Source: a virus
DNA: 14,188 nucleotides
UHGV virus genome: UHGV-1657534
Strand: one strand, 5' to 3'
In this document: positions 6,371 through 7,369 of the stretch, piece after piece
Layout: every line of letters begins with the position of its first letter
Numbering within the stretch: position 1 is the stretch's first letter
Translations under genes and position numbers: made by a program
The notes under the pieces: model-generated
What the model was told of the DNA's origin: nothing
Seen by the model: only the letters and a program-made list of their open reading frames with translations
Database searches by the model: none

Positions 6371-7369
6371 TTATCCGTTACCGCGCGACGGTTTCTGCGT
6401 GATAAACGTCTCAAGCATCTTTTCCGCAATTGCCGACCAGGTGTGACACTGGACCTTTTCAGCATTTTTCACGCGATCAACGCGAGCAATAACCTCATCC
6501 CAATCAATCCGCGACTTGATAACCATATGGTTCACCAACTCCAGGCGATCCGGCGGAAGGCAATCGGGCGGAGTTAATATCAACGCTCCACACATTGCCG
6601 CCTCAAGAACAGTTAATCCAAGGCTTTCGGGATGCGTAACGATAAAAATGTCACTCTTACGCAATTCAGCTGCAAATTCGGTTGCTGGTACCGGAGTCCG
6701 TCTGTATGGGGTTACCGAAATATTCCCCGGCTCAATGGTAACCAATCCGTCATCGGTCAGCGTTTTGGCCTCATACGGAACGGTCAGGCGCTGAAGGTTC
6801 ATAAGGATACTTAAGGAGTGATCAAACCCACTAACATCAAATGCCGCGTGGTCTACAAAAATACGCAGAACATCGTCTGTTTTGGTTTCCAGATGGAACA
6901 GCTCCTGATTCGCTGCCCATCCAACATGTTTGTTAAAACGATTATGACGCTCTAACCTGCCGGGATTATCCAGGTACCGCCAGGTATCATCGCGGACAGT
7001 AAAAGTAATATCGACTGGTGCCGAATCCAGCATAGAACCGTCATATACCTGGGCTACCCATCCAGAGAATCGGCGACACAGTTGCATGCCTATTTCCCTG
7101 GGTACCGTAGTAAAATACCTCAATCCTGGTGCCAAAATGGCCTTCGCAGAACATGCGGTCGCAGCAGTCAACACAGCTTCAACATAATCCTCCGGGCTTT
7201 CGACGCCAGGGGAATATGGACGATGGTATTGCAATGTTACCCCTGCCTCACTAAAGGCGCAGGCCAGGTTATAAGCCCACATTTCCGTATATGTTTTCAC
7301 ATCACTGATAGCTTCAAATTTTCGCCCAATGATCAGGATGTTCATCGGCTTTTCCTCATTCCATTGCAT
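6371..7369 (-). CDS. GT-B fold glycosyltransferase-like protein (GT4-like C-terminal motif), downstream of the helicase gene
   Basis: 332-aa ORF. The C-terminal segment DIFIVTHPESLGLTVLEAAMCGALILTPPD matches the GT4 signature (S/E-x-GL-x-x-LEAMA-x-G-x-P-V/I). The first ATG (7367-7369) overlaps the helicase TAA (7369-7371) as TAATG; a second ATG at 7343-7345 has a better RBS (GAGGAAAA). Position corresponds to dbn of P1 (from memory). Confidence 0.6.
   Translation of the reverse strand: MQWNEEKPMNILIIGRKFEAISDVKTYTEMWAYNLACAFSEAGVTLQYHRPYSPGVESPEDYVEAVLTAATACSAKAILAPGLRYFTTVPREIGMQLCRRFSGWVAQVYDGSMLDSAPVDITFTVRDDTWRYLDNPGRLERHNRFNKHVGWAANQELFHLETKTDDVLRIFVDHAAFDVSGFDHSLSILMNLQRLTVPYEAKTLTDDGLVTIEPGNISVTPYRRTPVPATEFAAELRKSDIFIVTHPESLGLTVLEAAMCGALILTPPDCLPPDRLELVNHMVIKSRIDWDEVIARVDRVKNAEKVQCHTWSAIAEKMLETFITQKPSRGNG

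Follow-up and report, generated by a model that had tools for sequence, protein, structure and literature searches.

The DNA analysed here (the window) is a 14.2-kb segment of a P1-like (Punavirus) phage-plasmid of E. coli, 14,188 nucleotides in length, presented in the orientation opposite to that of the P1 record. Nextera adapter sequence is found at both of its ends, and thus the window represents an entire short-read contig. The neighbours of dbn on the plus strand are the baseplate/tail genes 26, 25, 7, 24, 6 and 5. On the minus strand, in order of falling coordinates, a Dam/Dcm-type methyltransferase gene (dmt), tRNA-Asn, tRNA-Thr, an SPFH lipoprotein gene, a tRNA with a CAT anticodon, ban and dbn are encountered. 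The immediate synteny is that of P1, with ban directly upstream of dbn and baseplate gene 5 convergent with it downstream. The ban-dmt interval differs from that of P1 in that the SPFH/Band-7 lipoprotein gene replaces plp/upl/tciABC. dmt carries a C5-cytosine MTase domain and is located ~4.5 kb from dbn. The features of the locus are as follows.

38 to 436, minus strand: 5′ part of pmgO, 133 codons, cut by the contig end; its translation equals P1 PmgO up to ...LVGYD.
6324 to 6350, no strand assigned: GC-rich 11-bp hairpin between the convergent dbn and baseplate gene 5, from RNA folding.
6371 to 7369, minus strand: dbn ORF as annotated in P1, 332 aa with an ATG start, from ORF calling, PHROG 2518 and nucleotide identity.
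6371 to 7345, minus strand: conserved core ORF from Met9 (MNILIIG), 324 aa, from the starts of homologues.
6572 to 6637, minus strand: putative donor-binding motif HPESLGLTVLEAAMCGALILTP, residues 245-266, from alignments; H245, E247 and E255 are family-invariant.
6851 to 6856, minus strand: Asp172-His173 (in 'FVDHAAFD') at the start of the C-terminal Rossmann domain, invariant in alignments A1 and A3.
7369 to 8733, minus strand: ban, encoding a DnaB-type replicative helicase, in the same operon as dbn, from Pfam and the P1 annotation.

The open reading frame upstream of dbn (7369 to 8739, minus strand) belongs to the DnaB family (Pfam DnaB_C, 5e-108; DnaB, 2.7e-35); the start of ban is placed at 8733 by the P1 annotation, the frame itself running to 8739. 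The hairpin at 6324-6350 folds with -17.6 kcal/mol (z -4.3; 0 of 200 shuffles equally good) and lies ~20 nt past the dbn stop. It was folded separately and is absent from the list given by a consensus terminator scan; it is a probable bidirectional terminator for dbn and gene 5. The internal promoters P1dbn and P2dbn annotated in P1 were not supported, as one consensus match was found in 3 kb where 3.9 are expected by chance.

The gene proposed in the sequence-only reading is present as an ATG-initiated minus-strand ORF of 332 codons at 6371-7369. It is 96.9-99.6% identical at the nucleotide level to the dbn of P1, P7, SJ46, RCS47 and relatives, and 100% identical to that of E. coli plasmids such as NZ_CP023961.1. 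It is the same gene as P1 dbn and P7 glt, from which it differs by alleles only. PHROG 2518, which is listed as of unknown function, matches over the full length (E 5.5e-239 over residues 1-332 of 332), and the protein is 98% identical in amino acids to a cluster of 2431 members. The name dbn stands for 'downstream of ban'. In the P1 annotation the gene is described as "function unknown, possible glycosyltransferase", in that of P7 as "putative glycosyltransferase" (glt), and the RefSeq name of the product is 'glycosyltransferase family 4 protein'. Since the gene has been annotated as a possible glycosyltransferase for two decades, the basic claim of the sequence-only reading was already known. 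dbn is intact in all 76 full-length P1-like viral loci, in which 49 alleles with a pN/pS of 0.13 are found. It is thus a real gene under strong purifying selection. The first scan of viral contigs with Dbn was saturated by P1-like loci, and a genome scan yielded three loci. Among P1-like plasmids dbn was counted 471 times, ban 436 times and pmgO-Q 795 times for any match or 543 times for near-full matches, numbers that give no usable presence/absence contrast.

At the ban-dbn junction, which reads GATTATTAATGCAATGG on the minus strand, the ban TAA (7371-7369) and the dbn ATG (7369-7367) have one base in common. The TAATG overlap described earlier is thus confirmed at 7367-7371, the shared base being 7369. 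A second ATG, that of Met9, is located at 7345-7343, 24 nt downstream of the first, and has its own Shine-Dalgarno sequence, GAGGAAAAGCCGATG, with GAGG 8 nt upstream; a Shine-Dalgarno sequence precedes both ATGs. Most of the Dbn homologues from outside the P1 group begin at Met9, and the eight residues upstream of it are conserved in none. Residues 1-8 are also of low confidence in the structure model. The overlapping ATG is therefore probably not the conserved start. Of the 76 P1-like loci, 66 have TAATG at the junction and two have TGATG. In eight of the 76, a 100-codon ORF (PHROG 12809, function unknown) is located between ban and dbn, and the homology of dbn begins exactly at Met9; in these loci the ATG overlapping the ban stop belongs to the intervening ORF, and dbn is read from the Met9 codon, at an ATGA overlap. 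The arrangement in P1 and in the window looks like a deletion derivative that left "MQ...". Translation of dbn could be coupled at TAATG, but for the conserved protein a start at Met9 is more probable.

The proposal that dbn is coupled to the helicase gene stands as far as the common transcription unit and the TAATG are concerned, but the overlapping ATG is probably not the conserved start and no functional signal came with the arrangement. In the loci examined, DnaB is never found next to a Dbn homologue outside the P1 lineage. The ban-dbn association is therefore an operon neighbourhood in one lineage, and the pairing of a glycosyltransferase with a helicase, which had been called unexpected, concerns an annotated P1 gene and an adjacency limited to that lineage. 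Glycosylation of Ban or of the replisome by Dbn was considered as well and rejected, given the unconserved neighbourhood.

The P1 annotation assigns dbn to the ban operon, which stands behind the C1 operators Obana/Obanb. As the last gene of this C1-repressed operon, it would be transcribed once repression lifts, and its transcription would end at the hairpin at 6324-6350. The dbn transcript has been detected in lytic P1vir. In a genome-wide CRISPRi study dbn was non-essential (EOP 1.3), as was ban, and pmgO, pmgP and pmgQ were likewise non-essential in K-12. In a single-gene knockout library of P1, 24 of 29 mutants had no plaquing or antirestriction defect; dbn, pmgO, pmgP and pmgQ were scored as non-essential in the knockout study, as reported in the CRISPRi paper. 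The virion proteins listed in the P1 proteome paper include neither Dbn nor the Pmg transferases, and glycans are mentioned there only within the word transglycosylase. The cryo-EM paper on the whole P1 virion makes no mention of glycans.

The predicted structure of Dbn consists of two facing Rossmann-like domains, as in the GT-B superfamily. The GT-B glycosyltransferase-like character claimed earlier is thus borne out, together with an intact E-x7-E of GT4 type; the C-terminal motif HPESLGLTVLEAAMCGALILTP was recovered at residues 245-266, and no degeneration of its acidic residues is seen, E247 and E255 being invariant on alignment. E247, E255, H245, D172-H173 and D182 are invariant even among members that are only ~25-30% identical. 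At the site where GT4 enzymes have GRxxxxKG, Dbn reads FVDHAAFD, so that Asp172-His173 would occupy the position of that element; R223, which is nearly invariant, could substitute for the GT4 Arg/Lys pair. The search with Glycos_transf_1 (PF00534) proposed in the sequence-only reading gave a partial result: the family aligned at residues 229-315 only, with 23.8 bits, under the gathering cut-off of 26.4. PF13524 and PF13692 likewise remained below cut-off, and in precomputed Pfam data PF00534 is given for only some representatives of the Dbn cluster. When PDB sequences were searched with the Dbn family profile no glycosyltransferase was found, the only matches being spurious ones to KtrA; the C-terminal domain alone gave matches with E > 0.1, among them one to a bacterial OGT, and these were left unused. 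NCBIfam gave only a meaningless sub-threshold match, and PADLOC gave nothing for Dbn or PmgO/P/Q. The distant family alignment A3 was too divergent for use in scanning. An exhaustive profile search of 1.84 billion representatives returned only 360 Dbn matches at E <= 1e-3. As judged by sequence, the Dbn family is distinct from the bulk of GT4.

Dbn has a pI of 5.4, no TM-like segment and no membrane-binding feature. In structural comparison GT4 enzymes outscore a DNA glucosyltransferase, and the closest viral structure (BFVD) is a Tupanvirus glycosyltransferase with a TM score of 0.75-0.78. Dbn would thus be a soluble, acidic cytoplasmic protein of GT-B fold, related to the retaining GT4 enzymes. 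By analogy with these families, a host nucleotide-sugar would bind in the cleft between the two Rossmann domains, where Glu255 would hold the ribose and Glu247 the sugar, and His245, Asp172-His173 and Arg223 may replace the usual Arg/Lys phosphate clamp. The fold and the donor-site motif stand as results, and activity, donor and stereochemistry as inferences; it is likely that Dbn is an active glycosyltransferase.

The gene neighbourhoods of the homologues were compared in six independent contexts: P1, a 95-kb Citrobacter plasmid, two phage-like metagenomic contigs, phage EP_H11 and the Serratia/Buttiauxella chromosomes. PmgO-, PmgP- and PmgQ-like genes were found near the Dbn homologue in all six. 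In phage EP_H11 the four genes form a single overlapping operon in the order O-P-Dbn-Q. They are contiguous in both metagenomic contigs (L006 and L007), which have phage gene content, one of them with lambda-like head genes. In a metagenomic protein (P0088), a PmgO-like domain is fused to a Dbn-like domain. In P1 itself, pmgN-pmgO-pmgP-ppp-pmgQ is located ~6 kb from dbn, beyond the tail-gene block and behind the C1 operator Oppp. PmgO and PmgP have sub-threshold Pfam matches to MptE-like/DUF115, and neither matched WaaZ_KDO_III directly in Pfam. PmgO matches PHROG 4603, annotated as "alpha-2,3-sialyltransferase", and the PmgO-family profile aligns with Campylobacter Cst-II (GT42) at E 1.7e-3, the GPSL motif falling within the alignment. 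The PmgQ-family profile matches glycogenin (GT8) at 1e-6, Skp1 alpha-galactosyltransferase at 5e-6 and LgtC at 0.03, and the family has the motifs DxD, GDQG and HGxPRP. PmgO and PmgP are thus predicted to be GT42/Maf-like, and PmgQ a GT8/glycogenin-like, transferase. In the literature searched there was no functional work on dbn or pmgO/P/Q and no paper linking the four. The co-occurrence and the gene fusion suggest that the partners of Dbn are PmgO, PmgP and PmgQ rather than the helicase, and it is likely that Dbn works as a module with them. The sequence-only reading had stated that no partner hydroxylase is in the window; this was the case, but a co-occurring gene, the 5′ part of pmgO, is there at 38-436 on the minus strand. 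No hydroxylase/hydroxymethylase, ThyS-like or 5mYOX gene was found among the scanned ORFs of the window or the genes called around homologues.

The module recurs in other phages. A Bradyrhizobium prophage carries a cluster of PmgO-like, GT-A, Dbn-like, PmgQ-like and FkbM methyltransferase genes, as do 15 related loci from viruses or metagenomes. In these 16 soil/Bradyrhizobium myophage loci the cluster is flanked by the tail sheath gene on one side and the tail tube gene on the other in every case where the contig is long enough to show it. In many of them it is preceded by a gap of 300-670 nt, as would be expected of a moron with expression of its own. Pseudomonas phage PMG1 (D3-like) has a PmgO-like gene placed between those for the major head protein and the head-tail adaptor, and in "Tetraselmis virus" S20 two O-like genes, one Q-like gene and one methyltransferase gene follow the capsid genes. 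A T4-like contig carries a fused Dbn-like gene of 526 aa beside a polysaccharide pyruvyl transferase gene. Dbn-like and PmgO-like genes are both present in Stenotrophomonas jumbo phages, and PmgO-like genes in large phages of Caulobacter, Brevundimonas and Klebsiella. The phage of the T4-like contig and the large and jumbo carriers are presumably virulent, and lysogenic conversion would therefore be inapplicable there. In bacteria, one Dbn relative occurs in a capsule locus with KpsC/S-like genes, an ABC transporter and an MptE/WaaZ_KDO_III-like gene, and another in a polysaccharide cluster. The chromosomal dbn copies of Serratia and Buttiauxella sit among prophage lysis genes.

These results suggest, as the best overall explanation, that P1 dbn encodes a glycosyltransferase which works as a module with PmgO, PmgP and PmgQ in virion glycosylation; we give this reading as a whole an even chance. 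From precursors supplied by the host, the four enzymes would assemble a short glycan while the phage grows lytically. PmgO and PmgP, as GT42/Maf/WaaZ-like enzymes, would possibly use CMP-sugars such as CMP-Kdo, and PmgQ, GT8/glycogenin-like with a DxD, would be the third partner. The GT42/WaaZ-like pair may take CMP-Kdo as its donor, since this is, to our knowledge, the only CMP-sugar in K-12. The acceptor would be a phage structural protein, whose glycosylation would be dispensable for plaque formation in the laboratory. Taken by itself, this choice of acceptor falls somewhat short of an even chance, and it is favoured over a host envelope glycan. It is favoured because of the insertion of the module in head and tail blocks, the presumed virulence of carriers, the protein-directed relatives of PmgQ and those of Maf type, the soluble and acidic nature of Dbn, and a dispensability like that of known virion glycosylation systems. 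That the four-enzyme module attaches a short glycan to a virion protein (sheath, tube or capsid) in P1 and many other phages of Proteobacteria, possibly with CMP-Kdo, is put forward tentatively. The P1 proteome and cryo-EM papers, in which glycans do not appear, run counter to a virion acceptor. Against the reading as a whole stand the absence of an enzymatic or genetic phenotype, the Pfam score under threshold, the GT4 Arg/Lys motif missing from the sequence, the profile search of PDB in which no glycosyltransferase was found, the capsule and polysaccharide loci of bacterial relatives, and the gaps before many sheath-tube clusters. The sheath protein of P1 is reportedly of anomalous gel mobility, according to an old report that was not used as evidence here.

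The same four enzymes could instead act at the cytoplasmic face on a glycoconjugate of the host envelope, such as lipid A-core, an Und-PP-linked unit or a capsule/ECA intermediate, a possibility that we regard as rather unlikely. P1 binds glucose of the LPS core. Remodelling of the envelope might mask or truncate phage receptors and so lead to superinfection exclusion, to less re-adsorption of progeny to debris or to seroconversion, an outcome that we hold to be equally doubtful. The bacterial relatives in the capsule locus and the polysaccharide cluster, taken with a combination of Dbn, PmgQ and PmgO/P that matches the GT4, GT8 and WaaZ-like families of the LPS-core toolkit, point to a glycolipid acceptor. 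The chromosomal copies among prophage lysis genes agree with it; the gaps upstream of the sheath-tube clusters could hold promoters of their own, and early, C1-controlled expression in P1 would leave time for envelope turnover. Against such an acceptor, Dbn is acidic and devoid of any membrane-binding feature, and an initiating transferase, a flippase and a ligase are all missing from the module. The module also occurs in large phages presumed to be virulent and is found again and again inside blocks of head or tail genes, and the best solved relatives of PmgQ (glycogenin, Skp1 GalT and GlyE), which outscore LgtC, act on proteins.

A role for Dbn as a GT-B scaffold without catalytic activity or as a sensor of nucleotide-sugars, regulating or escorting other transferases or the helicase, is quite improbable. 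The Pfam score under threshold, the replacement of the canonical Arg/Lys clamp and the absence of a phenotype in P1 mutants would be in keeping with a dead protein, and a non-catalytic partnership might also account for the fusion to a PmgO-like domain. However, the E-x7-E, His245 and the Asp-His pair are maintained down to ~25-30% identity, which is the pattern of a conserved active site, selection on the gene is strongly purifying, and members of the family occur in multiple copies within glycan clusters.

Of the roles considered, glycosylation of phage DNA is the least likely and is very improbable: a post-replicative hypermodification of bases would explain the place of dbn in the ban operon by the helicase and near the C5-cytosine MTase domain of dmt, and phage C5-MT/5mYOX/GT clusters glycosylating 5hmC are described in the literature, but the dioxygenase or hydroxymethylase is absent from the window and from the homologue neighbourhoods examined, GT4 enzymes are the better structural match, and the helicase neighbourhood is not conserved. 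The biology of P1 also argues against it. P1 DNA serves as a standard substrate for cloning and restriction, and we know of no report of its modification by sugars.

The present analysis links dbn to pmgO, pmgP and pmgQ, such that four dispensable orphan genes of P1, the transducing phage in widest use, appear to be one glycan-building unit. Besides P1-like plasmids, this unit is carried by a Citrobacter plasmid, by contigs resembling temperate phages, and by jumbo phages and soil myophages, often in head or tail blocks. If virion glycosylation is indeed its role, it would be the first such system in phages of Gram-negative bacteria and would provide a function for four orphan P1 genes. A virion protein as acceptor would bear on phage immunogenicity and on P1-based delivery vectors. 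With the LPS core as acceptor, the unit would matter for the masking of receptors and for exclusion among P1-like plasmids, which are very common in clinical E. coli.

Compared with the retaining GT-B enzymes of GT4/GT5 (GlgM, BshA, PimA/PimB', sucrose-phosphate synthase, WaaB/WaaG), Dbn is ~11-14% identical and shorter (~320 aa). It has 'VDH' where GT4 has the GRxxxxKG phosphate clamp, and 'TH' in place of the usual 'PS' before the first Glu. With the alpha and beta DNA glucosyltransferases of T4 and the glycosyltransferases of 5hmC-glycan BGCs it has in common the GT-B fold, the phage origin and a location near replication genes. Unlike these, Dbn has no hydroxymethyl-base pathway and is accompanied by glycosyltransferases and structural genes rather than by MT/5mYOX/ThyS, and the structural score of the DNA enzymes is lower than that of GT4. 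The enzymes of LPS core synthesis, WaaG/WaaB (GT4), WaaO/WaaJ (GT8) and WaaZ (KdoIII), represent the same combination of families as Dbn, PmgQ and PmgO/P. They have no detectable orthology to the module, and no sign of membrane association was seen in Dbn; a bacterial PmgO relative has a faint WaaZ_KDO_III match. In the virion glycosylation of mycobacteriophages and giant viruses, several virus-encoded transferases located in or beside structural blocks use host nucleotide sugars and are dispensable for plaques. The predicted Dbn module differs from these systems in its families (a GT42/Maf-like pair, a GT8-like and an atypical GT4-like enzyme) and in having Proteobacteria as hosts. It resembles them in having several dispensable transferases by structural genes, and a Tupanvirus glycosyltransferase is the best structural match of Dbn.

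Illumina Nextera adapter sequence (CTGTCTCTTATACACATCTCCGAGCCCACGAGAC) was found at nucleotides 1-37 of the window and again at 14154-14188, the right-hand copy carrying one mismatch. The left adapter is read through by the frame of pmgO, one of the predicted transferase genes that co-occur with dbn (the predicted glycosyltransferase gene), with the translation ...LSLIHISEPTRL. It follows that the window represents an entire short-read contig whose adapters were left untrimmed, and that the truncation of its terminal ORFs, pmgO and dmt, is artificial. The annotation of a further gene near the left end was also reconsidered:

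600-1178, minus strand: pmgM, annotated as 'putative morphogenetic function'.

A VRR-NUC nuclease domain was detected in pmgM by Pfam below threshold (3e-4), and the gene matches a Holliday-junction-resolvase PHROG at 4.8e-27. Rather than a structural protein, its product is more probably an enzyme of DNA processing.

The start of dbn was compared among the P1-like loci. In 8 of the 76 (L077-L082, L086, L087), dbn is separated from the helicase gene ban by an additional ORF, located in L077 as follows:

7702-8004 of L077: 100-codon ORF, MQRKLTKRNKNW..., PHROG 12809, of unknown function.

The ATG of this ORF overlaps the ban stop, and its own stop overlaps the Met9 ATG of dbn. The 'MQWNEEKP' extension of dbn in P1 and in the window looks like a remnant of it. 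The metagenomic protein P0020 (257 aa) is a chimera in which the Dbn N-terminal domain (residues 1-114) is followed by an ImmA/IrrE-type (PF06114) region; the fusion point probably arose by recombination or in assembly.

In the soil myophage lineage (L093/L094, L097-L110), an FkbM-type methyltransferase (PF05050) is the invariable fifth gene of the cluster in the sheath-tube interval, which points to a methylated sugar. The cluster is preceded by a gap of variable length (56-670 nt). All four module genes occur, over ~13 kb, on the chromosomes of Serratia plymuthica, Serratia and Buttiauxella (L003, L004, L089). There, the PmgQ-like and PmgP-like genes have a phage holin on one side and a phage lysozyme/spanin on the other; a LysR regulator is also adjacent, as is a chaperone-usher fimbrial operon. 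These loci could represent a domesticated prophage remnant.

Further features were identified on the other side of ban:

9020-9095, minus strand: tRNA with anticodon CAT, called 'Met' by ARAGORN.
9123-9950, minus strand: SPFH/Band-7 lipoprotein gene (Pfam 9.7e-31; PHROG 200).
11096-11249: tRNA-Thr(TGT) and tRNA-Asn(GTT).

The P1 counterpart of the CAT tRNA is trnI, annotated as tRNA-Ile2, in which this anticodon would be lysidine-modified. The SPFH/Band-7 gene lies in the interval from the tRNA genes to ban, which is a variable cargo slot within the C1-controlled ban operon. P1 itself carries plp, upl and tciA/B/C (69.4-70.9 kb; 3814-5271 of the P1 locus, L002) where the window has the SPFH/Band-7 lipoprotein gene instead.
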